58,319 nt of DNA from Parcubacteria group bacterium (lineage in GTDB: Bacteria > Patescibacteriota > Minisyncoccia > UBA6257 > Colwellbacteraceae), in the NCBI GenBank assembly GCA_041649615.1, contig JBAZMT010000005.1, positions 1 through 58,319 on the forward strand. The letters are read 5' to 3'. Positions within the stretch are counted from its first letter, which is position 1. Every line of letters starts with the position of its first letter. A program made the translations under genes and the position numbers. The notes under the pieces are model-generated. The model ran no database searches. It was not told where the DNA came from and saw only the letters and a program-made list of their open reading frames with translations. This document shows, one piece after another, positions 28,706-50,386 of this stretch.

Positions 28706-29188
28706 CTATTCTCCAGGGCAAGCTGGAAATTCACAGTTTGGCCCTTCTCTTCCAACAGCCGTTCCGTCAGAGCAAAGTTTCGCGTCTTGAGTGCAAGCCG
28801 TAACTTGCGTAGCGACTTTACAATTCCTGAAATCCGCTTCTTCGCCGTTTTCAAGAATCAGGGCGTCATCTCCCTTATTCCAAAAAACAAACGATTCGTC
28901 GCTGTTCGCATATCTCGCGCCGGAAGCGGCAATAACTTGAGTCAAGTCAAATTTGCGGCCATCGCTTAAGACGAGTTTAACGCTGTCCGTAGAAACCGGC
29001 ATTTCTTCGGGTTCCACCGGAACAGATTCGCCTTTAAAGAACGAAGCTTCAATCGTCTTGTCATTTTCGCAAACGAAAGTGGCCGTCAGGGACGGAGTGG
29101 GAGAAGCTTTTTTCTCACCAAAGAAATACCAAGCGCCCGCTCCGAGCAAGAGCAAGACCACGATCAATATTATTATCTTTTTGATCAT
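28706..29188 (-). CDS. MliC-like (membrane-bound lysozyme inhibitor of C-type lysozyme) domain protein with a Cys-rich C-terminal tail
   Basis: 160 aa with a signal anchor. TFVCENDKTIEASF...VKLVLSDGRKFDLTQVIAASGARYANSDESFVFWNKGDDALILENGEE..NC follows the MliC pattern. Confidence 0.7.
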   Translation of the reverse strand: MIKKIIILIVVLLLLGAGAWYFFGEKKASPTPSLTATFVCENDKTIEASFFKGESVPVEPEEMPVSTDSVKLVLSDGRKFDLTQVIAASGARYANSDESFVFWNKGDDALILENGEEADFRNCKVATQVTACTQDAKLCSDGTAVGREGPNCEFPACPGE

Positions 29189-29982
29189 TGGATTTCCGTT
29201 AAAACTAATGTTTTGCCGCTTCCCGAAAGGGTTAACGTATCACCCGAGAGCGAAGCGGAGGCACCCGAGGTCAAAAGAGATTTCAACGCGTCTTCAATGT
29301 TCATCATTTCGGCCGGTTCAATGCAATACATGAGGGTTGAGGCCAACATTCCTCTTAGAGTGCTGTTTGTAAGAGCGAATCCGCCAAACATCGCATTGCA
29401 AACGTGCGCGTTAATGGAATTCTCGCTAAAGGCAACGGTATATTCGTAATCGAGATCGGTCGCAACGCCGTTATAGGAAGCTATGCGGAACGTTTTTCCT
29501 TCCAAGTCTTCCGTCTTGAGCGCTCCTTCGGAAGAGGTACTGGTGGCAGAAAGCATCAAATCAACGTTTTGTATCGGTTCTTCTTCTTCAAGAAGGAAGG
29601 TGGGAGTGTCGGTAACCCATCTCAATTCGTCATCCATAAAGATGCGCGCAAAGACGGTATAAACGTGACCGGAAATAATATCTTCGGGATTGTATTTTAT
29701 CGCGAAAGGAATCGGGACGTTTTCGCCGCTGGTGACGATATTTTCTTCGGCCACGATTTTTGCGGTCGCGTTGTCATCTTCTTCCGAAACGTCCCTTATC
29801 TGAACGTCAATAATGCTGCCTGAAGGCAACGCGATGCGTTCGCGATAGGACACGGTTCCCGTGAGTTCCGCGCTCGGGGCTTCGGGAACGGAAGGAGAAG
29901 GCTTCCAAACAAATATCGCGTAGATGGCAATCGCGACTATAATTACGCCGACAATAATTCCTAAGATTACTTTTTTATTCAT
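29185..29982 (-). CDS. YbaY-like plus META (HslJ-like) two-domain lipoprotein-type protein
   Basis: 265 aa. GTVSYRERIALPSGSIIDVQIRDVS is the YbaY-like part. LEGKTFRIASYNG...NSINAHVCNAMFGGF...TLMYC is the META-like part. Confidence 0.65.
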   Translation of the reverse strand: MNKKVILGIIVGVIIVAIAIYAIFVWKPSPSVPEAPSAELTGTVSYRERIALPSGSIIDVQIRDVSEEDDNATAKIVAEENIVTSGENVPIPFAIKYNPEDIISGHVYTVFARIFMDDELRWVTDTPTFLLEEEEPIQNVDLMLSATSTSSEGALKTEDLEGKTFRIASYNGVATDLDYEYTVAFSENSINAHVCNAMFGGFALTNSTLRGMLASTLMYCIEPAEMMNIEDALKSLLTSGASASLSGDTLTLSGSGKTLVLTEIQ

Positions 29983-32036: not shown

Positions 32037-32438
32037 ATGTTTTCCATAAAAGATGCAGGGTCGGTAATTTCTGGCATCGCTTTTTGCAACAATGCACGGC
32101 ATAGACGCCGCTCCAGAAAGACACTTAACCGGCTGGCAGAAGAAATAGAGGCATTCAAGAACTATCTCGCGGTTCGGGAAGAAGCGATTAAGGATACGGT
32201 GATCCTCATCTTGAATACTTCGGATGCAAACGGCCAGGAGCTTCAAAAACTTTCGGGAAGATTTTGGAGCAAATACAATTTGGGAAAAAGCAATTTTGTA
32301 ATCAAGTCCGTTTCGCGCGAAGATGTGAGAAGGGCGCTCGCCTCTTTTGACGGAGAAGCGGCAATGAATTTGAATCTTTCAAATGAGTTCGTTGCCATTG
32401 TCGTTGATCGCGGTGTGGCCGGAGTTTTCGCCATATGA
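32037..32438 (+). CDS. Hypothetical protein
   Basis: 133 aa with a strong SD (AAGGAGGA, 7 nt before the ATG). A hairpin ATCCCCTT-CTTC-AAGGGGAT plus T-run lies downstream. Confidence 0.6.
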   Translation: MFSIKDAGSVISGIAFCNNARHRRRSRKTLNRLAEEIEAFKNYLAVREEAIKDTVILILNTSDANGQELQKLSGRFWSKYNLGKSNFVIKSVSREDVRRALASFDGEAAMNLNLSNEFVAIVVDRGVAGVFAI

Positions 32439-32532
32439 CGCTTATGTTTCGCATTTTAGAATCCCCTTCTTCAAGGGGATTTTTATTAATAAAAAAGCCC
32501 CGATGTTAAAATCGAGGCTTTGCCGCAAGGAA

Positions 32533-34098
32533 TTATTTCCTTTTGGCATCGAACAAGTAAAGAACTTTCAGGCCATAGACCCAATAACAAATACGATTTT
32601 CGTCAAAGGAATCCATATAGAAATGAACCGCGGCTCCTTCGTCAGATGCCACTCCTTCAAGGGCTTCCATTGAATGCTCATACTGCCGAGGGCCCGTCCA
32701 TTGCGCGGAAATGTCTTCGAGCGACCGCCGATAGCTTTTTTTCGTAAGCTCGCGTTCTTTCTGCTTCAACAGACACTCTTTCGACGTTTCGTTTGATGCG
32801 GGCTTCTTTTTTAGGAATACGCCCACTAGCAGCAGAATAACGCTTGCGGGAAGCGAAATATACATGAGCACGATAAAAGCTTCGTATAAACCCGTGAGCC
32901 AACCGGCGCGCGTTTTTTCCGTTTCCTTCACCGCTCCCTGCTTTTCCACTTCGGGGCCGGTGTTCCAGACGATTTTGCCTCCTTCCAGTTTTCCCGTGAG
33001 GGATTCGGAAAGAAATTCATCGCTCACATTGGCTTCCGCGACAGAAGCCTCCAAATGAAGTTTCGCTTTGACCTTCAGGTCAACCGACATCGACGGGCGA
33101 TGGTCAGCAGAGTCAAGGAGATTTACTGCCGTTTTAATGTCTTCCGAATTGAGCGGAATGACCATTTTCCCTTCCGCCGAATCGAACTGCAGGTTTTTCG
33201 AGAGAATGACCTTTTGCCACCTATCAAGGCTCGTTCCTTCCACTTCAACCGTTCCGGAAATTTTTACATTTCCGATTTCCTTATCGGAAGTCAGATCGTA
33301 GAGGAAGATTAGGTCAGCCGCGTTTTCTCCTTGGGTAACGGAGAAGGCTCCCTTCTCCACGGGCTCCGGTTTTTCCGTCTCCGCTTTTTTGCTTATTTTG
33401 GAGACGGAGATGAGCGCGTTTTCGCGGATTTGGGCATCATAGCCGAAGCCGTAAAGGGCCCAACATCCTTCGCCGCGGTGAGCGCCGCTCAATTGATCTT
33501 CTATTTCAAAAACCGAAGAATTGAGCTTTCCGCCTACCGAGGCGACGAGCGTTTCTTTCCCGTCAGTCACCGTCGCTATGATGTCCAGACGGTAGGTGTT
33601 GTCCATGAAGTACTCTATCTGGGAGTTGTATCGCGGGTTTAAGTCCCTTTCGATTTGGGCTCCCGTAGCGAGAATGTTTCCGAAGTCCAGCGGGAAAGAG
33701 ATTTCCATTTTGTCGGAGCGCTTTTTTACTTCGTCCGTTTGGAGAACTTCCTTTTGCCATTTCCCGTTGACTTCCGAAAGTACCGCTCTTACGGAGACAG
33801 TCTTTTCCGACGGTTCGGCTTTTGTGGCTTCATCGCGCGCCAAGACATAGGCGAAATTCATCGTCATATTTTCCGTTATAGGCGGGAAAATGGTCTCGGC
33901 GGCGTTTTGATGATTGCCGTAGGGTTGCAAGGTGAAGCTTCCCGTTTGCTTATAGGAAGCGATTGTCTTTTCTTTTCCGTCTCCCGCGGCGGGGCCGATG
34001 ATGAGCGAACCCACCAGGGACACGACAAAGATAAAAAGAAGAACGAACGGCGCGAGGGTGATGAACGGACGCTTTGTCCGCCACTTTGGAATTCTCAT
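32533..34098 (-). CDS. Bitopic membrane protein with a large ectodomain, partner of the SipW-like peptidase (possibly DUF5305-like; unverified)
   Basis: 521 aa with an N-terminal TM helix (FITLAPFVLLFIFVVSLVGSLII) and a second TM helix near residue 410 (FIVLMYISLPASVILLLVGVF), then a cytoplasmic tail of ~85 aa. Its ATG overlaps the peptidase TGA (ATGA at 34095-34098). Confidence 0.7.
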   Translation of the reverse strand: MRIPKWRTKRPFITLAPFVLLFIFVVSLVGSLIIGPAAGDGKEKTIASYKQTGSFTLQPYGNHQNAAETIFPPITENMTMNFAYVLARDEATKAEPSEKTVSVRAVLSEVNGKWQKEVLQTDEVKKRSDKMEISFPLDFGNILATGAQIERDLNPRYNSQIEYFMDNTYRLDIIATVTDGKETLVASVGGKLNSSVFEIEDQLSGAHRGEGCWALYGFGYDAQIRENALISVSKISKKAETEKPEPVEKGAFSVTQGENAADLIFLYDLTSDKEIGNVKISGTVEVEGTSLDRWQKVILSKNLQFDSAEGKMVIPLNSEDIKTAVNLLDSADHRPSMSVDLKVKAKLHLEASVAEANVSDEFLSESLTGKLEGGKIVWNTGPEVEKQGAVKETEKTRAGWLTGLYEAFIVLMYISLPASVILLLVGVFLKKKPASNETSKECLLKQKERELTKKSYRRSLEDISAQWTGPRQYEHSMEALEGVASDEGAAVHFYMDSFDENRICYWVYGLKVLYLFDAKRK

Positions 34099-35045
34099 TC
34101 AGTTATCCTCCTTTTGATTCTTTCTTTCCGTCGAGGTTTTTTAACCGCCACGAGGACGATTACTACGCCGACCGGAATGAGTATTTCGAGAGTCATCGCG
34201 GCCACCACTGCATAGGGCGACCATTTGAAAAGATTGTGAACAAGAGAGAGCGGCAAGGGCAGCAACGGGAGAAACGAACCGCTTTTGAGCGTGATATTTT
34301 TTTTATCCGACTCAATCGCGATTATTTTTTCTTCTCCCGGAATCAAAAGAAAGTTATCTTCCGATAGCGTGCCGTCGGAGACAAGAAAGATCTCCATGGG
34401 CAACAGGGTTGTCACTTTTTTTTCCATCACATATCCGCCATCGGGATGTTCAATGAGAACCGTTCTCTGTTCGGTCACACCGTGGCCAATCATTGACCAC
34501 GCGCATATTCCGATGACCGCGAGAATAACCAAAGCGTTTTTCATCGAGAACGCTTCGGCACGCGTCGGTCTCCTCTTTTCCTTTTCAAGAAGAATGACGA
34601 GAATCAGCGCACTTCCCAGAACAAAGAGAAGGCTCATTAGGGCGATCTTGTTTCCAAGAACGAATCCGAGAAGAGGAATTCTTCCGCGAGCTTTCCCGAG
34701 AAAATTGTCTTTAGTGACAACTTTCTGGTCAGGCGTTTTGTTGGCGTCTCCTTTCGTCGTTATGAAGATGTCCTCCCCGCGTTTTTCGATGCTTACGGCT
34801 CTATGCACCGTCAAATCGGTGCTGTCGTTAGGGCTACTGAAGACGATTATGTCTCCGATTTCCACTTTGGATATGTCGGTTTTGATACAAAGATGTTCGT
34901 CTCCAAGACATAGGGTCGGAACCATGCTTTCGCTCGTGACATGATGAAAGCTCCAGCCGACAAGAGGCATTACAACGGCGATAAAAAAGAAGATGAAAAG
35001 AGCTATTACGGTGAGTGCATCGGGAACGATTTTTTTGAGAGTCAC
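34095..35045 (-). CDS. SipW/archaeal-type signal peptidase I (S26B) with extra C-terminal TM segments
   Basis: The boxes are HHVTSESMVPTL (Ser), VHRAV (His) and TTKGDANKTPD. I place the start at GTG 35045 (MTLKKIVPDAL...), 10 nt after AAGGAGG. The track start TTG 35156 is itself the -35 hexamer TTGACA. Confidence 0.8.
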   Translation of the reverse strand: MTLKKIVPDALTVIALFIFFFIAVVMPLVGWSFHHVTSESMVPTLCLGDEHLCIKTDISKVEIGDIIVFSSPNDSTDLTVHRAVSIEKRGEDIFITTKGDANKTPDQKVVTKDNFLGKARGRIPLLGFVLGNKIALMSLLFVLGSALILVILLEKEKRRPTRAEAFSMKNALVILAVIGICAWSMIGHGVTEQRTVLIEHPDGGYVMEKKVTTLLPMEIFLVSDGTLSEDNFLLIPGEEKIIAIESDKKNITLKSGSFLPLLPLPLSLVHNLFKWSPYAVVAAMTLEILIPVGVVIVLVAVKKPRRKERIKRRITE

Positions 35046-35126
35046 TACGCACGAACCTCCTTTACGCGAATTATTTATCTTATTTGGTTGAAAAAGGCCT
35101 GGCTCCGGTGTTCCAGAGTTCGGGTT

Positions 35127-35156
35127 AGAATAATCAGAAAAAGTAGTTTTTGTCAA
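35127..35156 (-). promoter_or_regulatory. Putative sigma70-type promoter of the sipW-like operon
   Basis: On the minus strand, TTGACA (35156..35151), an 18-nt spacer, then TATTCT (35132..35127). Confidence 0.45.
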
Positions 35157-35171
35157 GTAACAAATTTAAAA

Positions 35172-35190
35172 CCCCTCTTTAAGAGAGGGG
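35172..35190 (-). terminator. Rho-independent terminator after TasA-like gene A
   Basis: CCCCTCT-TTAAG-AGAGGGG followed by a T-run on the minus strand. The same 19-nt hairpin recurs at 35992..36010. Confidence 0.8.
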
Positions 35191-35243
35191 CTTATGGGAA
35201 GCGGAGAGAAGAAGAAATTGCTGGCTACTTAGGCCGGTAGTTT

Positions 35244-35855
35244 TTACTGCGCAGTCGTCTGGCCTATCTGGAATTCGAAGCTCACGGTGACCTTATCGGT
35301 CTGAGCAAGATCGTCGTTCGGGCTGGACCACCAGTCTATCAGAGGCCTGATGCTTATTTCCTGGCCGGGAGCCAAAGGCTCATTCAGTTCAAACGACGCG
35401 GGTAAATTGTCCAGCTTGCCGTCATAGATGACCTTGTCGCCCGCGGATATCCATCCGTTCAAGTCATAGTCAATGAAGAGCCTCAAATTGACCAGCGAGC
35501 CGAGTTCGCCGACATCGCTCGTAGTGTCGCCGGCGAGGATTTCGGGGTTCGTGAGACCTTTCTCTTCGTTCACCACGCTGAAGTTTTCGAGGTCAAGGTA
35601 ACCCGGCTTGGTGCCGATGTTTTTGACCTTATACGACAGGTGGCTGATCTGGCTCGGGCCCATATTCTCCACGGCGAAAACAGCGACATTGTCCTGCTTG
35701 CCGTTCACCGTGATATCCAAGCTGCCTGCCTGGAAGTAGTTGCCGATGGAGGTCCCGATGTCGCTGAAGCTAGCGCCCGTGCCGAGGCTTAAGCCGCCTA
35801 CGACCATTATGGCCGCTAACGCAATGACAAGCAGGATTTTGCTGCGGTTTTTCAA
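35244..35855 (-). CDS. TasA/camelysin-like secreted fibre-subunit candidate A (SipW-type signal peptide)
   Basis: 203 aa. The TTG start lies 7 nt after AGGAGGA. The N-terminus is MKNRSKILLVIALAAIMVVGGLSLGTGASFSDIGTSIGNYFQAGSLDITVNGK, matching the TasA/CalY-type signal plus the N-terminal strand motif. Confidence 0.75.
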   Translation of the reverse strand: MKNRSKILLVIALAAIMVVGGLSLGTGASFSDIGTSIGNYFQAGSLDITVNGKQDNVAVFAVENMGPSQISHLSYKVKNIGTKPGYLDLENFSVVNEEKGLTNPEILAGDTTSDVGELGSLVNLRLFIDYDLNGWISAGDKVIYDGKLDNLPASFELNEPLAPGQEISIRPLIDWWSSPNDDLAQTDKVTVSFEFQIGQTTAQ

Positions 35856-35880
35856 GATTGATTCCTCCTAAAGATATTTT

Positions 35881-35910
35881 GAAATGGATTTCTTCTTCCC
35901 CTTCCGCAAA
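35881..35910 (-). repeat. Conserved 5'-leader element, copy A
   Basis: GAAATGGATTTCTTCTTCCCCTTCCGCAAA (plus strand) matches 36788..36817 at 26 of 30 positions. On the mRNA it is purine-rich (UUUGCGGAAGGGGAAGAAGAAAUCCAUUUC). Confidence 0.7.
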
Positions 35911-35944
35911 TTTGGATTTGTTAAATAGCCAGCAAACGAGGTTG

Positions 35945-35973
35945 AAAATAATATATATTATAATATTTGTCAA
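35945..35973 (-). promoter_or_regulatory. Putative sigma70-type promoter of TasA-like gene A
   Basis: On the minus strand, TTGACA (35973..35968), a 17-nt spacer, then TATTTT (35950..35945). Confidence 0.5.
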
Positions 35974-35990
35974 TAGAGCGGATATGAAAA

Positions 35991-36011
35991 GCCCCTCTTT
36001 AAGAGAGGGGC
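35991..36011 (-). terminator. Rho-independent terminator after TasA-like gene B
   Basis: GCCCCTCT-TTAAG-AGAGGGGC followed by TTTT on the minus strand. Confidence 0.8.
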
Positions 36012-36064
36012 TTTGAGGAAAGGCGAAAGAAAGAAGAGATTTCATCAGCTGCCGGCGCCGCGCG

Positions 36065-36760
36065 TCAGGGCTGTTCGAGGACGAACTCCACGTCGAAACC
36101 GAGCGAATCGGTCATCGACATATTTTGGTGATAATTGTTGTCCGTGGTCTCCGTCGGGAACTGCCAGGGAATGACTATGTCAACCGAGGCGCCCGGGGCG
36201 AGGATCATAATGCTATTCCAGCGCGCTGCATAGGAATTCAGGCCGCTCCAGTAAGGAACGCCGCTCCGGAAGCCCGGATAGGGGGTGGACTGGCCGTTGT
36301 AGGCAAGCTGGATATCGCCGGCATCAAATACCCTGTCGCTGTTCAGATCGGCATAAGGCGCGAACTGCATAAAGATGTCCAGCTCGCCGCCATTGCCCGG
36401 GTAGTCTCCCGTTGTGAGCCCGGGGCCGCCGAGAGGTCTTGGGTAGGCTTTGGCTTCGGGGTCAAGGATGCCGTTTTCCTCATCGATGGTTTTGGTCCAG
36501 TCCATGGCCAATCTGGCATCGATGCTGCCATCGTTCGTGATGGTCACGAAGCCCATGCCGTTGTCGCCCGGTTTGATGTTCTCGAGGGCGAAGGGCAGGG
36601 TCGCGGATTCTCCGACGCGCAGTACGAGCGAACCGGCTACGAACGTGTTGTTCTCGATCTTCTTCGAGTCCACCCACGAGGCGGACACGCCGAGGCTGCC
36701 GATGGCGACGACCATGATGAGCGCGATCAGAATGGCGATGAGGGTTTTCTTGTTCTTCAA
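36065..36760 (-). CDS. TasA/camelysin-like secreted fibre-subunit candidate B
   Basis: The TTG start at 36760 lies 7 nt after GAGGAGGA. The track start 36862 would read through the conserved leader. The N-terminus is (M)KNKKTLIAILIALIMVVAIGSLGVSASWVDSKKIENNTFVAGSLVLRV, followed by ENIKPGDNGMGFVTITNDGSIDARL. The gene is visibly GC-rich. Confidence 0.75.
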   Translation of the reverse strand: MKNKKTLIAILIALIMVVAIGSLGVSASWVDSKKIENNTFVAGSLVLRVGESATLPFALENIKPGDNGMGFVTITNDGSIDARLAMDWTKTIDEENGILDPEAKAYPRPLGGPGLTTGDYPGNGGELDIFMQFAPYADLNSDRVFDAGDIQLAYNGQSTPYPGFRSGVPYWSGLNSYAARWNSIMILAPGASVDIVIPWQFPTETTDNNYHQNMSMTDSLGFDVEFVLEQP

Positions 36761-36787
36761 AGTATCTTCCTCCTCTGAAATATTGTT

Positions 36788-36817
36788 GGAATAGATTTCT
36801 TCTTCTCCTTCCGCAAA
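36788..36817 (-). repeat. Conserved 5'-leader element, copy B
   Basis: GGAATAGATTTCTTCTTCTCCTTCCGCAAA, a paralog of 35881..35910, occupies the same position relative to the promoter and SD. Confidence 0.7.
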
Positions 36818-36846
36818 CTTGTTAAGGCAACTGATAAACGGAGGGT

Positions 36847-36875
36847 AGAATAATATATGCACAAACCATTGTCAA
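36847..36875 (-). promoter_or_regulatory. Putative sigma70-type promoter of TasA-like gene B
   Basis: On the minus strand, TTGACA (36875..36870), a 17-nt spacer, then TATTCT (36852..36847). Confidence 0.5.
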
Positions 36876-36898
36876 GAGGGCTAATAAAGATATAAAAA

Positions 36899-36922
36899 GC
36901 CCCTTACCAGACGGTATGGGGC
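36899..36922 (-). terminator. Rho-independent terminator after TasA-like gene C
   Basis: On the minus strand, GCCCCATACC-GTCT-GGTAAGGGGC (one mismatch) followed by TTTTT. Confidence 0.6.
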
Positions 36923-36936
36923 GAGGTTAGGGGTTT

Positions 36937-37515
36937 TTATCCCCAGTAGCTGAAGGTGTTCATCGGCATAACAGTGAACGTATAGGTAAACGTAGCTTCA
37001 ACGTTTTGAGAGGTATTGTCTGCGGCATCATCGAGCTTGAATTCCCAGATAAAACAGTGGATGGCACCGGAATTTAGGTTTCCCAATGTTTCAGCCGAGT
37101 CAATATGAAGGTTATTTAATTTCCCCTCATAAATTATCGGCCAATCGCTAGCGTCGGTTGTCCCGCCGTTCGTTTTGCGAATGCAAACCATAATCGCGTC
37201 CGCGAAGCCGGGAAACGATTCAGAACTGGCCTCTGCGCTGATTTTATATCTGACGGGCAGAAGGCCGAGGTTCTTTATAGTCATCGGTTTGGGTTCACTC
37301 CAAACGCCAGGAGCCAGTTTTCCGTCTGGAGACGGCGAGCCGGTAATTGTTATTCCCGTGGCGTTTATCTTCGCGTTTGCACCAGCGGATGCGACGTCTA
37401 TCGAGACTTTGTTGCAAAGAAGGCAAATGATGTTCCCGATAGCGGTGACAAGAAGCAGGAAAACTAAGACGATAAAGATAATAGTCGAGACGGGCGTCTT
37501 TTTCTTCTCATCCAC
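36937..37515 (-). CDS. Divergent TasA-like secreted protein C (minor subunit candidate)
   Basis: 192 aa. The GTG start lies 7 nt after AGGAGGA. It has a K-rich n-region and a long hydrophobic helix. The body (PGVWSEPKPMTIKNLGLLPVRYKISAEAS) resembles the PGD...N.G strand of copies A and B. This assignment is weaker than for A and B. Confidence 0.55.
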   Translation of the reverse strand: MDEKKKTPVSTIIFIVLVFLLLVTAIGNIICLLCNKVSIDVASAGANAKINATGITITGSPSPDGKLAPGVWSEPKPMTIKNLGLLPVRYKISAEASSESFPGFADAIMVCIRKTNGGTTDASDWPIIYEGKLNNLHIDSAETLGNLNSGAIHCFIWEFKLDDAADNTSQNVEATFTYTFTVMPMNTFSYWG

Positions 37516-37591: not shown

Positions 37592-37714
37592 CTAGGTTCT
37601 CATCTTACTGATCAAACACAGGATCACGCCTATGGCCGTAAGCACTATGATGGCGATTAAAAATATTTCTCGCCATTTTTCTTGATTGGAAACAGCTTTT
37701 TTCTTTTTCTTCAT
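37592..37714 (-). CDS. Possible 40-aa single-TM micro-protein
   Basis: Own translation gives MKKKKKAVSNQEKWREIFLIAIIVLTAIGVILCLISKMRT. It is below the track length cut-off and has no clear SD. Confidence 0.3.
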   Translation of the reverse strand: MKKKKKAVSNQEKWREIFLIAIIVLTAIGVILCLISKMRT

Positions 37715-37732
37715 CGCTTTAATAATTATACC

Positions 37733-37766
37733 AACAAAGACACCGCGATCGCGGTGTCTTTGTTGT
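37733..37766. terminator. Perfect 34-nt palindrome (17-bp arms), likely the terminator of 37778..39268
   Basis: CAACAAAGACACCGCGA|TCGCGGTGTCTTTGTTG sits directly after the stop codon of the upstream gene. Confidence 0.6.
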
Positions 37767-37777
37767 TTAATGTCTGC

Positions 37778-39268
37778 TTATGGCTTTTGTATGCAATAGG
37801 TGTTATAGGCGGCGTTAAAGTAATGAGTTATCTGGGACGAGACAGTATTTTGTTTTGATGGATCCTTAAAATAAACAATATTAGTGTCTGGATTAATCTT
37901 GCCTGTCGCGTCAAGAGTAAGGGACATTCCGTCCAAGACAAGGTAATGATTCCCGAAACGAGGTTGCCAGGTAAGGTCGCTTAGAGAAAATTTGATGCTG
38001 TTGGTTTTTGTGTGTCCGATCGCTACTCCTCCCGATTCAAAACAAGTTTTCAGGTCTTCCGGCGTTTCCGGTATAACGTAAGAAGTAAGCCCATATTGAG
38101 CGGGAATATTTTGAGAAACAAAAGCTCTTTCCACCGTGCCCTTGCCGCATATTCGATACCCTTTAGTGGTCATCAGGCTTCCAACTGTTGTAACGGCGTT
38201 TTCGGAAGTGGCGTATTGATTGCCCGTGAAGTAAAGAAGAACCATGGCAAAAGAAGTGGGAGCGCATCCGGACCAGGAGAAATTTTTGCATCCTGCTTTG
38301 CCGTATCTTATTTTCCCCCAGCGGGGATCTCCCTGCGCCAAGCGAATAACTCCCATTTGGATAGTAGGAATCTCATCGTTAGGTTTCTTTATGGGAATAG
38401 GTTCTACTGCCAAACAGTATTTTTGACTCGTGGGCTTGTTAAAAACGGGGCCGGTAGTGAAATTAATGCTGCTCGGGTTATTTGTGACTGGCGTGAATAA
38501 TTTATTCACGATGGCTTGCAGGCTTTGACCCGTTTGATTAAAAGCGATAATTATGCGTACGGTTTTTCCTTTGGATTCGTTTCGCAGTTCTTTTATGGGT
38601 ATGCATCTGTTGCTTATTCGAGTGTTTAAATCAGCGAGTATTTTTGCAACCGTTACGTTAGTAGGAATATTTATGATGGCAATGGTGCGGCTTCTTTCAT
38701 CCAATTTCATTTTTTTAGAGTCAACTTTCAAGTCCCCCGTCTTCGGATCACGCCCTAAAATATAAAATCTTTCCGGTTCGTAAGAATTGTCATCTCCGAC
38801 AAGAGGACTGTCAGCGGGTGGATCCATGTCTATGTCTTCATCCACCGAACCGATTTTTGGATCAATCTTCGGGGTACCTATAACCGCACCAAGATTCGTA
38901 ATGGATGGAAGAGAGATTCCTCCTATAGACGCTCCCAATTTTTCAAAAATATTAAGCGTTTGGGATATTGCTCCCATCTTCAGGCTCGTACCGGTTTTAG
39001 CAAGACTCGGATTTGTCCGATCATTTATCGTTGAAAGTCCGATGTCTACAGCTGAAATGATTAAATAACTTCCTGTGATTATCACGAGTCCTTGGATGGC
39101 CGCCCATGTCCAGGTCTCTTTTTCTTTGAGGCTTTTTTTCTTAGCGGTAGCTCTTTTTATCGCTCCATACGCAACAAGTCCGAGCGCAAATATCGCACTG
39201 ATCCCTAAAGCATAGAGAAAGATATTTTGAACAGGATTATTCGGGGAAAGCCATTCGGTAATGTTCAT
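37778..39268 (-). CDS. Pilin-hairpin / GyrA-tower-like / C39-like cysteine peptidase fusion protein, paralog 1
   Basis: 496 aa. The N-terminus (NPVQNIFLYALGISAIFALGLVAYGAIKR...AAIQGLVIITGSYLIISAV) has the two-TM VirB2/TrbC-like pilin layout. The C-terminus carries SGCAPTSFAMVLLYF (Cys), GNHYLVLDG (His) and KDP. Confidence 0.7.
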   Translation of the reverse strand: MNITEWLSPNNPVQNIFLYALGISAIFALGLVAYGAIKRATAKKKSLKEKETWTWAAIQGLVIITGSYLIISAVDIGLSTINDRTNPSLAKTGTSLKMGAISQTLNIFEKLGASIGGISLPSITNLGAVIGTPKIDPKIGSVDEDIDMDPPADSPLVGDDNSYEPERFYILGRDPKTGDLKVDSKKMKLDERSRTIAIINIPTNVTVAKILADLNTRISNRCIPIKELRNESKGKTVRIIIAFNQTGQSLQAIVNKLFTPVTNNPSSINFTTGPVFNKPTSQKYCLAVEPIPIKKPNDEIPTIQMGVIRLAQGDPRWGKIRYGKAGCKNFSWSGCAPTSFAMVLLYFTGNQYATSENAVTTVGSLMTTKGYRICGKGTVERAFVSQNIPAQYGLTSYVIPETPEDLKTCFESGGVAIGHTKTNSIKFSLSDLTWQPRFGNHYLVLDGMSLTLDATGKINPDTNIVYFKDPSKQNTVSSQITHYFNAAYNTYCIQKP

Positions 39269-39305: not shown

Positions 39306-40721
39306 TTAATACCTAAGAGTTGAATTACAGGTATTTGCGGGTCCAAAAGCGCCGCAGACCTCATAATATCCGCATGAACCGCATGAACTGACTGTTCGTT
39401 GCTTTCCACAGTTGTCAGGACCGGTGAAAGACCCGCATTCTAAACCGCGTCTGGAACAAAACGCGGTATCTGTTTCCGAAGTGCATCCGTTTTCGCAAAC
39501 CGCGTTAATATTCACGTCCGCTTTTTTGCCGCCCGCTCCTGTGCCGCTGATGCACCAGGTTGCCCTGTCGCGTTTAAAATAGTGCGCTATTTCCGATGAT
39601 TTAGTGCGACCCCCGGGGTCGGCTATGATAAATAAATTTTTAGTTTCGTCTATGCCTTTAACCACAATGTAGTGAGCATAATCCGTGAATTGAGGATGCC
39701 ACGTGTGGTCTTTTGGATCATCGTTTGAAGCCGCCATCGAACCGATCATCACTCCTCCTTTAAGGAAACAATTTTTCGCTTCTTTTTGATTATTAACTTC
39801 GGTGGATGTTAGGCCGTAGCTTTTGGGAATTCTCGTGAATGCCGATGAGTACACTCCGCTTGGCTCGTTACCGTTGCATTTTTTCATTCCGCCTTTAACT
39901 ATCTGCGCTCCTATGGTTTGAACAGCGGTGCTTTTAGTCAAATATTGGTTTTTTGTAAGATAAAGGATAGTCATGGCGAGAGACGTCGGTCCACATCCTC
40001 TGTTTCTAAACGTGTGTTGAGTCGGACAACCCGGCACGCATATTGGTTTGTCTCCCCAGGGGCTTTGGCCTTGATATAATTGCGGCACTGCGGCGGTGTA
40101 AACTAATTTATCGGACGGCGCTAATTCACCCGTTTCTCGAGGTGTAAGAAGTTGTCCGGCAATAGTATTTGCGTCAAAACCATCTTTGATGGTGATAACA
40201 ATTGAAATATTGTTTCCAACGGACTCATCTTTTATTGAATCCACTCCTTGAATGTTCGCTTCCGTTATGCGCGCGTTCAGATCGTTGATTAATTCTTCCT
40301 TCGTTACCCCTTCCGGCAACCATTTCAACGTGATTTTGCCCGGCTCTATCAGGACTTTACTTGTGTCATATATGGGAAGGCCGGTCCCAAAATCAATTCC
40401 TTCAAAAAAAGAGCCTTCAAGCGGTGGAGGAATTTCTAACGGGTCAACTAAAAGATCAAGAGGAGCGGAGCTAATTGTTAATATCCCGGGATTTACAACG
40501 GAGAGAATAATGAATCCACCGGCAAGAATCATAAGTCCTTTGGCGGCAGACCATATCCAGGACATCGCTTCTTTTTTTTGACTCGCATTATCTCGCGAGA
40601 GGATATATCTTATGCCTCCGTACATTACGACTCCGAAAGAGACAACGGCTCCCAGTCCAAGACCGAACAGGAATATATTCTGGACTCCTCCGATTGCTCC
40701 AAACCAGTCGTTGATGTTCAT
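39306..40721 (-). CDS. Pilin-hairpin / GyrA-tower-like / C39-like cysteine peptidase fusion protein, paralog 2, with a Cys-rich C-terminal tail
   Basis: 471 aa with GGVQNIFLFGLGLGAVVSFGVVMYGGIRY...AAKGLMILAGGFIILSVV, then RGCGPTSLAMTILYL, AHYIVVKG and ADPGG. The last ~70 aa contain 10 Cys. Confidence 0.7.
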   Translation of the reverse strand: MNINDWFGAIGGVQNIFLFGLGLGAVVSFGVVMYGGIRYILSRDNASQKKEAMSWIWSAAKGLMILAGGFIILSVVNPGILTISSAPLDLLVDPLEIPPPLEGSFFEGIDFGTGLPIYDTSKVLIEPGKITLKWLPEGVTKEELINDLNARITEANIQGVDSIKDESVGNNISIVITIKDGFDANTIAGQLLTPRETGELAPSDKLVYTAAVPQLYQGQSPWGDKPICVPGCPTQHTFRNRGCGPTSLAMTILYLTKNQYLTKSTAVQTIGAQIVKGGMKKCNGNEPSGVYSSAFTRIPKSYGLTSTEVNNQKEAKNCFLKGGVMIGSMAASNDDPKDHTWHPQFTDYAHYIVVKGIDETKNLFIIADPGGRTKSSEIAHYFKRDRATWCISGTGAGGKKADVNINAVCENGCTSETDTAFCSRRGLECGSFTGPDNCGKQRTVSSCGSCGYYEVCGAFGPANTCNSTLRY

Positions 40722-46849: not shown

Positions 46850-49800
46850 TTAATCACCGTTTATTACTTCTTTAAGATTCCAAAACATACTGTTGCCTTT
46901 TTCAATCAAAAGGTTAATAAGATCGATAACTTTCTGCTTCATCGCTGTATCGCCAGCCTTATAAATTATGTCGAGGGATTGTTTAATTTCATTGTCGAGA
47001 TTAAATAATGGCGCACGTCGATTCTGGTTCAAATTACCAGTTGAATCCAATAGGAAATGCTGGATTATTTCTAAAGTCTTTTCTCCATTTTTTTGAGCAA
47101 AGACGGGGAGCCTTCTCATAAGACCGTAATCCCAGTCGATATCTCCATTTGATTTCTCAAGCGTCTCTGCTACTCGTCCAATCACCTCTTCATCACTCAA
47201 GACTTCTTTATTTGGATTTATCCAAAATCCAAAACCCGCAAGGGGCTCCGGCTCCCTAACGTTCTCCAATGCCCAATCCCAAAACTTCAATAGTTTATCC
47301 TTACTAACTTTATTTTCATTTAGCCATTCATCTCCAGCTTGATCTCGAATTAAGCAGCTGCGACCAATGAAGGATATGAACTCTTGATATCTCTTAGAAT
47401 TAGACGTGCTCCAAAATTGCTGAAATAGCGAGTCCTCGATTTCAAGACCTAAATGAGCGAAAGCAAGCGCGATGTGGACCGCTAGGGATTCATCAAGCCC
47501 CTTGGAGTACTTTCGCCCTGTGTAGATCTTCGGATCAAGAGTAATCGCGTGGCTATAATAAGCACTAAGGTCGATAAAAAGTTTATCGTAGAGAGTATTG
47601 GAAAGATATCCTTCCCAGCTTGCTAGATAAAGGTCTTTTTTAGCAGGATCATCTTTAGGGAATATTTCCGGCAAAAGCCCAGTAACAAATTCCTTATCTC
47701 GAAAATAAAAGGTCGCCAAGTATCGACCAATGACAAACCGAACCGCAAGCGAATCATCAGCAAGAGCCTGCTTAAATAAAGCCTTTGTATCGTCGGCCAA
47801 AGTCTTGCCATCATTCTCAGTGAACACGACAAACGCCTCGTATGCCCGGCCACGCACAGAATTAATCGCCACATGATAAGGCTCACCGTACTCTGGTTTC
47901 TCATGCTCCTTGGAAGGACTATCTTTTATAGACAGAAGGTATGAAATTAAATCCTTTATTTTTATTCGGTTTTGTTTGTGATTATCATCTCGTGTTTCTT
48001 TATTCTCGAGAATGTATAACAGAGCGTCGGTTATTACCTTATGAACTTCAATCCAGTCTGCAAGCCATGATTTATCGTCTTTACGCCTAAAAGGAGTTGC
48101 CTCGCCGCTTTTTTTGATCGCGTCGCAGAGACCTAATAATTGTTCTATCTGAATTAGCGTCAATATTTGTTTATTACGAAGCATCTCTTCAATGCCGCGC
48201 AGAAGTGAATATACATAAGCAGGATGAATATTATCTCGATCGAAGAAAGAAGTGATTTTGCTTAGGTATTCATCGGTGCGCTTTTTAACGTCCTCTTTAA
48301 TAGAATCACCCAAACCTTCCACACCTCGAGGGCTAAGAAAATCGTCATCTTTAAACTGCTCCTTTAATTTCTCTGGAGACCAGTCTGATTTTAGATTTGC
48401 AATAATTTGGTCAACAGCGTAATCCGCTACATTCACCGGGGACCTGTGAGCAACAAAACCAGATTGAATTTTTCCTACAGAAGGCTGAGGAGTATATTCT
48501 GCGTCACACTTGCTTCCAAATATTTCTTCACATTTTTCCGCCTCTTCTACTGTAAGGTGAGTACAAATGCTAGATATAATCTCCCAGCCTGTACGTTTAT
48601 GCCAGGCCTGATCTGGATGCTCCTCCGCTTTCTTCGAAAAATAACTGAATACCTGAGCGACATAAGTACGCTGATCAGCGTCGTCAAGGTAATAAAATCC
48701 AATTTTTAGAGTTTTTTTGTATTCAGTCCCACCTTCAATATCGTAGTAATTTTCTACCTCAAATAATTTGAAAAAGGCGGCCTTAAGTTCTGTCTTAAAT
48801 ACAGTCGGGCATTGAGAAAGAGCAAACATTCTTAAACGCCATGTTGCCCGACAAGTTGGAAGAGTATCAATATATTCAAACAGCCTCTTGGCATTAGCAG
48901 GAGTATCACATTTCTTGCCGATCGTTCCTTCGATCAATTTCTTTATAATCGCAGCAAGATTTTTTATATCCTCTCGGTATGAATAACTGTGTTTATCTTC
49001 AATCTCTAAGGTGAAAATATCGACATCATACAAAGAAAATAGATCTGAATATTGAAATGCTCCAGAATCGTCTGGCGTAGCTAACTTAACAATCTCACTC
49101 ATGACGGCCGTAGTTATTTGCAAGGCTTTTTCCTTATGCAAATCATCAATACCTTCTAATGCCTCAAAAATACCGGAAGCATCAAGATCACTAGCATAGA
49201 ACGGATCGTCCATACCAAAACCAGCAGCTTTTTCAGCCATCTCCGCTTTGCTTTTAGCTAACAGCATCGCCTGTGCTAATTCCAAAATAGCGTCATTCTC
49301 TCTTTTCTCTACTAACTTTTCTACGATTCGAGTAAATTCATAACCGCTTTTACGGAAACTGCGCATAAGATAAACCCACTTCTCATCACGAATCTTTGCT
49401 GTGAGCGTCTTTATTTGTTCTGCCGGAAGCGAACCGATAATCCACATAAAGCGGTCTACCACTTCAGGATTGAAATTTGCTTCAGAGATCGAAGCAGATG
49501 TAATAATCTCAGCAACCTTGATTGGGTTCTTATTGACCATTCGAAGCAGATATTCCAATTCTGAAAGTCGATAAGAATAACTAGTTGTATTTTCTGCTTT
49601 CTTTTTTATCTCATCGAGAAAGCCGTTCTTCCAAAGCCACTCAATCCGAGTTTCATTGGCCTGCGAAAAGAAGTAACGCTTAGCGTCATAGCTCAAAGAG
49701 AACAGTAACCACAAGTATGACGCATCCTGATTATTCTCTTTAAGGAAAGCGTCGATCTTCTCGTGAATCTTGAGAGGATCAAGCGATGATTCCTTCAGTG

Positions 49801-50386
49801 TATTTTCAAATACTTGAACAAGATTATTAAAATCTTTTTCTGTGGGAAAATCCTTCTCATCTACAGTTATCCCAAGCTGTTTAAATATTCTTATAGCACC
49901 TTCCTTACTTTTCTTTTCTGCAAAGTGATGCGAGATTTTTGTAAAAGCTAAATGGGTTTTATATAGGGTGTTGGCAATGATTTTTGCACGTTTCTGTTCG
50001 TGAAGGACTTCAAGGACGCCTCCAATTTTCTCTCTTTTTGTCTGAAGGTTAAGAAGCTTATTGAGAGAATTATTTTTAAACCCAAACTTACTTAACAATG
50101 AATAAAGCTTAACCTTAATTTTGAAATAAACATTCTGATCCTTTTGGCCCCCTAGTCTATAAAGCAGTTCCCGGTAAGAATGAGCAGACTGAGCCATCCA
50201 ATCAGGGTTAGAAGTGGCACTATGTACAACAGCTAGCGCACCTTTAATCAGGTCAGATGGCAAAACTCCATCCGGACAAATTTTTTCTTTCTCGTTAAGA
50301 CGATCCAAATAATTACAAATCCACTCTTGATGTGACTCAAGTTTAAGTGGTCGATCTATCTTGATGTCTAAGTCCTTATCTTCCAT
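46850..50386 (-). CDS. 1178-aa orphan protein, apparently all alpha-helical repeat, with no catalytic or NTP-binding motif recognised
   Basis: It is one uninterrupted ORF in an AT-rich island. I found no Walker A, HEXXH, PD-(D/E)XK, HNH or TM segment. It is divergently transcribed from the LexA-methyltransferase gene. Confidence 0.75.
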   Translation of the reverse strand: MEDKDLDIKIDRPLKLESHQEWICNYLDRLNEKEKICPDGVLPSDLIKGALAVVHSATSNPDWMAQSAHSYRELLYRLGGQKDQNVYFKIKVKLYSLLSKFGFKNNSLNKLLNLQTKREKIGGVLEVLHEQKRAKIIANTLYKTHLAFTKISHHFAEKKSKEGAIRIFKQLGITVDEKDFPTEKDFNNLVQVFENTLKESSLDPLKIHEKIDAFLKENNQDASYLWLLFSLSYDAKRYFFSQANETRIEWLWKNGFLDEIKKKAENTTSYSYRLSELEYLLRMVNKNPIKVAEIITSASISEANFNPEVVDRFMWIIGSLPAEQIKTLTAKIRDEKWVYLMRSFRKSGYEFTRIVEKLVEKRENDAILELAQAMLLAKSKAEMAEKAAGFGMDDPFYASDLDASGIFEALEGIDDLHKEKALQITTAVMSEIVKLATPDDSGAFQYSDLFSLYDVDIFTLEIEDKHSYSYREDIKNLAAIIKKLIEGTIGKKCDTPANAKRLFEYIDTLPTCRATWRLRMFALSQCPTVFKTELKAAFFKLFEVENYYDIEGGTEYKKTLKIGFYYLDDADQRTYVAQVFSYFSKKAEEHPDQAWHKRTGWEIISSICTHLTVEEAEKCEEIFGSKCDAEYTPQPSVGKIQSGFVAHRSPVNVADYAVDQIIANLKSDWSPEKLKEQFKDDDFLSPRGVEGLGDSIKEDVKKRTDEYLSKITSFFDRDNIHPAYVYSLLRGIEEMLRNKQILTLIQIEQLLGLCDAIKKSGEATPFRRKDDKSWLADWIEVHKVITDALLYILENKETRDDNHKQNRIKIKDLISYLLSIKDSPSKEHEKPEYGEPYHVAINSVRGRAYEAFVVFTENDGKTLADDTKALFKQALADDSLAVRFVIGRYLATFYFRDKEFVTGLLPEIFPKDDPAKKDLYLASWEGYLSNTLYDKLFIDLSAYYSHAITLDPKIYTGRKYSKGLDESLAVHIALAFAHLGLEIEDSLFQQFWSTSNSKRYQEFISFIGRSCLIRDQAGDEWLNENKVSKDKLLKFWDWALENVREPEPLAGFGFWINPNKEVLSDEEVIGRVAETLEKSNGDIDWDYGLMRRLPVFAQKNGEKTLEIIQHFLLDSTGNLNQNRRAPLFNLDNEIKQSLDIIYKAGDTAMKQKVIDLINLLIEKGNSMFWNLKEVINGD

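Follow-up and report, generated by a model that had tools for sequence, protein, structure and literature searches.

A conserved locus of TasA-superfamily subunits, a TafD-like signal peptidase and a divergent DUF5305-like protein in a Parcubacteria group bacterium

Contig JBAZMT010000005.1 of a Parcubacteria group bacterium (assembly GCA_041649615.1) carries a locus that combines TasA-superfamily proteins with a signal peptidase I and a membrane protein of the DUF5305 type. The window that we analysed is the whole stretch of 58,319 nucleotides, and the open reading frame (ORF) listing together with a reading of the sequence places five co-directional genes on its minus strand between positions 32533 and 37515. 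In the direction of transcription these are gene A (36937..37515; 192 aa), which family-profile comparison assigns to a divergent TasA-superfamily paralog; gene B (36065..36760; 231 aa, TTG start), a TasA-like protein of what we call the B type, recognised by Peptidase_M73 and TIGR04088; gene C (35244..35855; 203 aa), a TasA-like protein of the C type, recognised by Peptidase_M73 and an AlphaFold2 model; a TafD-like signal peptidase I of the archaeal/endoplasmic reticulum (ER) type (34095..35045; 316 aa, GTG start), recognised by TIGR02228; and a divergent DUF5305 (TafG-like) membrane protein of 521 aa (32533..34098), assigned by homology through a relative designated P0003. The start of gene B is the TTG at 36760 behind GAGGAGG, and that of the peptidase gene is the GTG at 35045 with AAGGAGG as its ribosome-binding site; the starts of the 265-aa and 353-aa ORFs listed for these two genes are wrong, and the corrected starts match the ortholog gene calls in a syntenic relative.

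An earlier interpretation made from the letters alone (hereafter the sequence-only reading) had proposed that the last two genes are translationally coupled, and the stop codon of the peptidase gene does overlap the ATG of its partner in the letters ATGA (34095-34098), which an AGGAGG precedes by 8 nt. The N-terminal motifs that it quoted for C (...LGTGASFSDIGTSIGNYFQAGSLDITV) and B (...LGVSASWVDSKKIENNTFVAGSLVLRV) are exact, and the SESMVP, HRAV and TKGDAN boxes are all found in the peptidase. It had also remarked that a TapA-like gene is missing, and in our Pfam and NCBIfam searches neither TapA nor further families matched the genes in or beside the locus.

The five genes are real and are constrained by purifying selection. 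The same five-gene order, with matching flanking genes, occurs in Parcubacteria group bacterium isolate SO_2017_LW4_59, where the encoded proteins are 50-79% identical and the ratio of non-synonymous to synonymous substitution rates (dN/dS) is 0.10-0.23 with synonymous sites saturated (0.18 for A, 0.16 for B, 0.10 for C and 0.17 for the DUF5305 gene). Conservation of the order in a second genome and these low ratios together argue that the genes are not chance reading frames. The Parcubacteria group falls within the Patescibacteria, and the description of the host as similar to members of the candidate phyla radiation (CPR) was correct, the syntenic relative being a metagenome-assembled genome of the Parcubacteria group. 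The ortholog of C is named "TasA family protein [Parcubacteria group bacterium]" at NCBI.

On profile evidence, B and C are members of the TasA family rather than TasA orthologs. Both exceed the gathering cut-off of 22.5 bits for Peptidase_M73 (PF12389), with 27.8 bits for B and 28.1 bits for C, so the expected relationship to camelysin is borne out for these two proteins and lacks a direct match for A alone. B also passes the cognate_SipW signal model TIGR04088 (22.8 vs 19), and its 15.2 bits fall short of the 450 set for the TasA equivalog NF046066. B and C are paralogs with 30% identity (E 6e-13). A profile search recovered 34 homologs, nearly all with PF12389, which form two subfamilies: a C type of ~203 aa and a B type of ~230 aa with a YPRPLGGPGLTTGDY insertion that is present in gene B. 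The best-conserved stretch in 32 sequences of the family, G-T-x-A-[YWS]-F-S-D-x-E-T-S-x-G-N-x-F-x-A-G-S-L-D-L, lies right after the hydrophobic helix. The B/C family profile matches the solved TasA structures 8AUR and 5OF1 at E 4e-5, which is better than its weak match to AbpX (E 0.01).

The comparison of folds is based on the model of C (predicted local distance difference test score, pLDDT, 82.4; predicted TM-score, pTM, 0.71), which shows an all-beta sandwich from residue 48; residues 1-45, where the signal peptide and a putative donor strand lie, are unplaced in the monomer. The first PDB match in Foldseek is the TasA fibre (8aur_A, E 1.1e-4, prob 1.00, TMq 0.50); the second is 5of1_A, the monomer of TasA, and a Sulfolobus thread subunit follows with prob 0.98. 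The TasA jelly-roll that had been anticipated is therefore the best match for this subunit. Six acidic or polar residues (E98, N99, E105, D110, E117 and D187 in C numbering) are invariant, or almost so, in the 32 homologs, and could perhaps bind a metal (Ca2+) in the way reported for AbpX and for cannulae.

When the B/C family profile is aligned with 8AUR, the N-terminus of mature TasA falls on the SFSD region. Cleavage would thus be expected after Ala28 in C (between LGTGA and SFSD) and after Ala27 in B (between LGVSA and SWVD). The n-regions of the three subunits (MDEKKK, MKNKK and MKNRSK) have no twin-arginine (RR) motif, and the lysine-rich n-regions without RR liken B and C to the Sec-dependent tafi-like clusters rather than to those that use twin-arginine translocation (Tat).

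Gene A departs from this pattern. The sequence-only reading had ascribed the SipW-cognate N-terminus to all three subunits, which is true of B and C but not of A, where a K-rich n-region and a long hydrophobic helix (an uncharged run over residues 7-35) occur without the G-x-x-A-x-F-x-D cleavage motif (GNIICLLCNKVSIDVASAGANAKI). The motif position reads ICLLCNK in A and ICFLSRK in its ortholog, and the uncharged hydrophobic run grows to 28-29 residues. Most relatives of A keep a canonical A-[YW]-F-T-D; besides A, just a few members lack it. Simple searches reveal little of its ancestry: A has no direct Pfam match, BLASTP against B and C gives just a short match (IIYEGKLNNL / VIYDGKLDNL), a word-index search finds the ortholog alone, and a two-sequence profile of A gives E 0.0014. 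A full-library HMMER search, in contrast to these, retrieved 24 remote relatives of ~190 aa. The resulting family profile aligns with the B/C family over 182 columns (hhalign prob 99.4, E 5e-22) and with TasA 8AUR at E 1e-6; PF12389 is matched by 14 of the 25 A-family members, and the A-family hidden Markov model finds B and C of the window directly at ~1e-10. The link between A and B/C is solid on the strength of the full-library search and the profile-profile comparison, and these alignments make A the third paralog of the TasA superfamily in the locus, and a very divergent one. Cleavage of A at the canonical site may not take place.

The peptidase scores 75.7 bits against TIGR02228 (archaeal/ER-type signal peptidase I, S26B; cut-off 51.85), and its 53.3 bits lie below the 190 of the SipW equivalog NF046067. 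Ser40, His81 and Asp100 align with human SEC11A/C (7P2P/7P2Q) at SGSMEP, VHR and KGDNN (E 6e-5), in an alignment that spans SxSMxP, VHR and KGDxN, and the catalytic residues are kept in the peptidase ortholog; the aligned catalytic serine and histidine that the sequence-only reading called for are thus present. Hydrophobic segments at residues 2-36, 123-157, 163-191 and 276-304 imply a predicted layout of a first transmembrane (TM) helix, the catalytic ectodomain, a TM2-TM3 hairpin, a second ectodomain of ~85 aa, TM4 and a basic tail. The taf-cluster peptidase of Haloferax mediterranei aligns with it at hhalign prob 97.5 and E 5.8e-12 (columns 33-266 to 33-326), and this alignment is co-linear through the second ectodomain, to residue 266; that cluster has an annotated DUF5305 gene. 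TafD of the haloarchaeal Tat-fimbriae has four TM helices, two external domains and the residues Ser40/His83/Arg84, and deletion of tafD stops TafA processing and fibre formation (PMC11821415). With its four predicted TM helices and two ectodomains, the peptidase described here is of the TafD type.

The partner of the peptidase has hydrophobic segments at residues 8-41 and 403-431 with ~365 aa between them and a ~90-aa cytoplasmic tail behind. The description of two TM helices on either side of an ectodomain was correct. This protein had been presented as unknown, with DUF5305 named as a family worth searching; the suggestion was right and the protein is identifiable as a divergent DUF5305/TafG-like member. 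Membership is assigned by transitive homology through P0003, which is 34% identical to the partner over 96% of its length (E 5e-85) and scores 33.1 bits for DUF5305 (PF17231) against a cut-off of 29; the ortholog P0002 (50% identity) scores 18.5 bits, under that cut-off. An AlphaFold2 model of low confidence, used for the secondary-structure layout alone, suggests a TM helix, two beta-rich blocks, a second TM helix, and a cytoplasmic helix with an alpha/beta domain. This layout and the position beside a signal peptidase I fit the published description of DUF5305 as a protein with a beta ectodomain, two TM helices and, in the cytoplasm, an alpha/beta domain, which is common across archaea and bacteria, is sometimes fused to the peptidase, corresponds to TafG in Tafi loci, and is considered a putative signal peptidase I accessory in the AbpX preprint, its function in that literature still being inferred from context (bioRxiv 10.64898/2026.01.04.697558). 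Co-occurrence of TafG/DUF5305 with these peptidases has been reported as well (PMC11821415; bioRxiv 10.64898/2026.01.04.697558). A comparison of the partner with PDB sequences found no relative.

Related cassettes were found in other contigs. Four further CPR-like TasA loci (L006:8001-10725, L007:8001-10729, L009:8001-10714 and L020:1709-5223) each encode a single B- or C-type subunit together with a short peptidase of 196-226 aa and a protein that has a lamin-tail domain and an N-terminus weakly matching TasA-like profiles. At L004:8675-10003, a 442-aa protein beside a C-type subunit has a Peptidase_S24/S26 domain and a C-terminal Peptidase_M73-like region, and it appears to be a fusion of a peptidase with a TasA-like domain. 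A fuller counterpart is encoded at L019:6001-9252 (ENA ERZ27248082, k141_125669), where two PF12389 genes, one of them with a product 47% identical to C, accompany a TIGR02228 peptidase gene and an overlapping DUF5305 gene. Genes for NucS (archaeal equivalog), a HerA-like protein and NurA adjoin this cassette, so the contig is probably archaeal and the cassette type would be common to both domains. That this cassette occurs there, in a sample whose accession is close to those of the samples of the CPR relative, hints at cross-domain transfer. A contig scan with the peptidase alignment and a metagenome scan with the partner alignment returned known relatives only, as the patterns are too lineage-specific. 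Against plasmids, tblastn with the partner found nothing, and tblastn with the peptidase found mostly haloarchaeal megaplasmid peptidases that match over the catalytic domain only; loci of Halorubrum, Halobellus and Enterococcus with such peptidases are without DUF5305.

Taken with their predicted regulatory signals, these genes suggest several transcription units. Promoter-like sites precede B (TTGACA-17-TATTCT, 36847..36875) and C (TTGACA-17-TATTTT, 35945..35973), both on the minus strand and both conserved in the relative SO_2017_LW4_59, and a third precedes the peptidase-DUF5305 pair (TTGACA-18-TATTCT, 35127..35156, minus strand). These three sites score 10/12. Gene A has only a weak 9/12 site, whereas the sequence-only reading had proposed three individually promoted subunits. 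G+C-rich terminator-like hairpins with T-runs, likewise on the minus strand, follow B (CCTCTCTTAAAGAGGGG and a T-run, 35992..36008), C (35169..35193, with a stem sequence identical to that after B) and the DUF5305 gene (32494..32521). From these promoter-like sites and terminator-like hairpins, B and C each give the appearance of an independent transcription unit, and the last two genes that of a translationally coupled pair. The segments before B (36761-36936) and C (35856-36064) are near-duplicate cassettes, each made up of a terminator hairpin, a promoter with TTGACA, ATATATTA and a leader rich in purines, CAAATTTGCGGAAGG(A/G)GAAGAAGAAATC; the relative keeps this cassette before B as well. 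A search for a consensus RNA structure in the leaders gave none (-0.41 kcal/mol), and there was no Rfam match.

From the homology and the fold, the catalytic residues, the topology, the coupling, and the synteny and selection described above, we propose that the locus probably equips this Parcubacteria-group (CPR) bacterium with an extracellular fibre (or matrix) of the TasA superfamily. B and C would be transcribed from their own strong promoters, and the peptidase and DUF5305 genes as a bicistron. Following export of B and C by Sec, the TafD-like peptidase, acting with the DUF5305 protein, would cut B after Ala27 and C after Ala28, and the DUF5305 protein may serve as a non-catalytic accessory subunit that is loosely comparable to the accessories of the eukaryotic signal peptidase complex. 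The freed, conserved N-terminal segment (S-F/W-x-D...GN-x-F-x-AGSL-x-L) could then act as a donor strand that completes the beta-sandwich of the next subunit, allowing for a chaperone-free fibre built by donor-strand complementation, as in TasA, AbpA, AbpX and Tafi. In such a fibre, B and C might be major and minor, or alternative, subunits. A, which has a longer hydrophobic stretch instead of the cleavage motif, could stay tethered as a base or nucleator, a role played elsewhere by TapA or TafF, although this step is speculative. A more elaborate scenario, in which A is a membrane-tethered, uncleaved TasA-fold subunit that nucleates or anchors the B/C fibre in place of TapA/TafF, the cassette was possibly exchanged between archaea and CPR bacteria, and the fibre attaches an epibiont to its host, is a conjecture that we think rather unlikely to hold in full.

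Several observations weigh against the fibre system as proposed. C scores 17.0 on TIGR04088, just under the cut-off of 19, although its ASFSD motif aligns, and A has no match to this model, so that only B exceeds its cut-off. The Pfam matches of B and C span the N-terminal 80 residues only, and the TM-scores of the C model to TasA are moderate (0.44-0.50). The partner has no direct Pfam or NCBIfam match and lies under the DUF5305 cut-off; its hhalign comparison with the Haloferax DUF5305 protein is not significant and that with the DUF5305 protein of the probably archaeal contig is weak (E 0.0015), and these weak direct comparisons with two DUF5305 proteins indicate a divergent member. Its model was built from three sequences and has a pLDDT of 54, and its Foldseek matches (complement C3, VPS26 and factor XIII; TM <0.2) are generic tandem beta-sandwiches that we left unused; as the matches are generic, a likeness to the macroglobulin-like domain of TapA was not drawn. 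Finally, homology and context are the basis for the proposed polymerisation, for the predicted sites of cleavage and for the role given to DUF5305, and the peptidase is only putatively dedicated to the subunits, the search for another signal peptidase I having covered the 58-kb window.

This last point bears on the possibility that the peptidase-DUF5305 pair is the general signal peptidase complex of the cell and merely adjoins abundant substrates. The pair has its own promoter-like site and terminator-like hairpin, CPR genomes are reduced and no other signal peptidase I is encoded within the window, and the architecture resembles the eukaryotic multi-subunit complex. We nevertheless judge this improbable, as peptidases of this type are linked to TasA-like genes not only in Parcubacteria and further CPR-like contigs but also in haloarchaea, Firmicutes and a probable archaeon, the substrates have a specialised SipW-cognate motif, and TafD is needed specifically for TafA (PMC11821415). 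It is also conceivable that A, B and C have the TasA fold and are secreted or sit on the cell surface without polymerising, be it as a coat or matrix that is monomeric or loosely associated or as small secreted factors. TasA is also a stable monomer, the form captured in 5OF1 and the second-best fold match of C, and homologs carry the JGI label 'predicted ribosomally synthesized peptide with SipW-like signal peptide'. However, all structurally characterised members (TasA, AbpA, AbpX, Tafi and threads) form donor-strand filaments, the strand that would follow the cleavage site is the best-conserved part of the family, and folded 200-aa domains are not ribosomally synthesised and post-translationally modified peptides; this alternative we consider unlikely, if somewhat less so than a general peptidase complex. 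The Pfam name Peptidase_M73 could further suggest that the subunits are camelysin-type metalloproteases, but neither HExxH nor another motif for zinc binding occurs in A, B or C, histidine is found just once in C, and the family members with solved structures are jelly-roll proteins of a structural kind. With no metal-binding motif to support it, we rejected a metalloprotease function, which seems very improbable.

The nearest described systems for the proposed fibre locus are archaeal Tafi-like and AbpX-like loci and not tapA-sipW-tasA of Bacillus, which the sequence-only reading had cited; the former are closer in combining a four-TM peptidase with DUF5305. The archaeal Tafi/tafi-like set considered here comprises the subunits TafA/C/E, the peptidase TafD and the DUF5305 protein TafG, with examples in Haloarcula hispanica, Natrinema, Thermococcales and Archaeoglobus. 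Like these, the locus pairs a signal peptidase I with four TM helices, two ectodomains and shared Ser40/His/Arg positions with an adjacent DUF5305 gene, and here as there the secreted subunits number two or three, are small (150-230 aa) and rich in beta structure, and are predicted or shown to assemble by donor-strand exchange. It differs in that the host is a CPR bacterium, that the subunits are of the PF12389/TasA type with the SipW-cognate motif rather than TafA/E or DUF1102, that homologs of the TafB regulator, the TafC tip and the TafF anchor are lacking, and that the DUF5305 protein is very divergent and ~150 aa longer; unlike in the haloarchaeal Tafi, export here would be of the Sec type and not Tat. 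The AbpX-like loci of Pyrodictium abyssi and of bacterial and archaeal homologs similarly contain a signal peptidase I and a DUF5305 accessory, but their peptidases are reported with ten TM helices as opposed to four, and the B/C profile resembles AbpX less than TasA.

With Bacillus subtilis tapA-sipW-tasA, the locus shares a TasA-fold subunit in which the cleavage and donor-strand region aligns, as well as an ER/archaeal-type signal peptidase encoded together with the subunits. In contrast to that operon, the locus has no TapA but has a DUF5305 partner and three paralogous subunits, and B and C each look like their own transcription unit, with a weak site before A. The peptidase also differs from SipW (~190 aa): it exceeds it by 130 aa, has two further TM helices and a second ectodomain, and scores far below the cut-off of the SipW equivalog. 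The four CPR-like loci with one subunit differ as well, in having a short peptidase and a lamin-tail-domain protein instead of DUF5305. The resemblance to the eukaryotic signal peptidase complex is of another kind: the catalytic subunit is homologous to SEC11, with Ser/His/Asp aligned, and in both cases a membrane protein without catalytic function, which has domains on the lumenal and the cytoplasmic side, accompanies the peptidase, but no homology between DUF5305 and the accessory proteins of that complex was detected and the analogy is one of topology only.

The locus is a new, CPR-borne example of a kind of system described in 2022-2026 and not a new class. Patescibacteria have been listed among the phyla with PF12389 (Wang et al. 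2022; PMC9245690), and the module of signal peptidase I and DUF5305 in TasA-like loci has been published (PMC11821415, PMC12337348, bioRxiv 10.64898/2026.01.04.697558). The novelty claimed by the sequence-only reading was in these respects overstated, though it remains that no characterised TasA-type appendage of a CPR bacterium appears to exist, and a literature search pairing TasA/camelysin with CPR terms yielded nothing beyond Wang et al. 2022. Two points deserve most attention, namely that paralog A lacks the motif and that there may be a connection to archaea. A TafD/TafG-type module that has so far been mainly archaeal sits here with bacterial-type TasA subunits in a reduced genome, and the locus offers a compact test case for the function of DUF5305. 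A life in attachment to other cells is commonly assumed for CPR bacteria, and type IV pili are, to our knowledge, the sole adhesive appendage so far studied in them. A conserved and apparently complete TasA-type cassette is a second candidate surface structure to seek in Parcubacteria.

The surroundings of the locus contain further genes. Directly upstream on the minus strand, 37778-39268 and 39306-40721 encode two paralogous proteins with an N-terminal, pilin-like hairpin of two TM helices and a C-terminal Peptidase_C39_2 domain, and the relative has one copy in a syntenic position. Between these genes and gene A lies a terminator that is a perfect palindrome (37732-37765). A 40-aa ORF with one hydrophobic helix (MKKKKKAVSNQEKWREIFLIAIIVLTAIGVILCLISKMRT) occupies 37592-37714 (minus strand) between the nearer Peptidase_C39_2 gene and A; it is not conserved in the relative and was dropped as a part of the system. 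On the plus strand, a 133-aa ORF without a family match (32037-32438) converges on the DUF5305 gene and is conserved in the relative (51% identity, dN/dS 0.32). Also near the locus, the segments 28706-29982 and 46850-50386 hold genes for MliC-like lysozyme-inhibitor and YscW/META lipoproteins and a 1178-aa ORF without a Pfam match.

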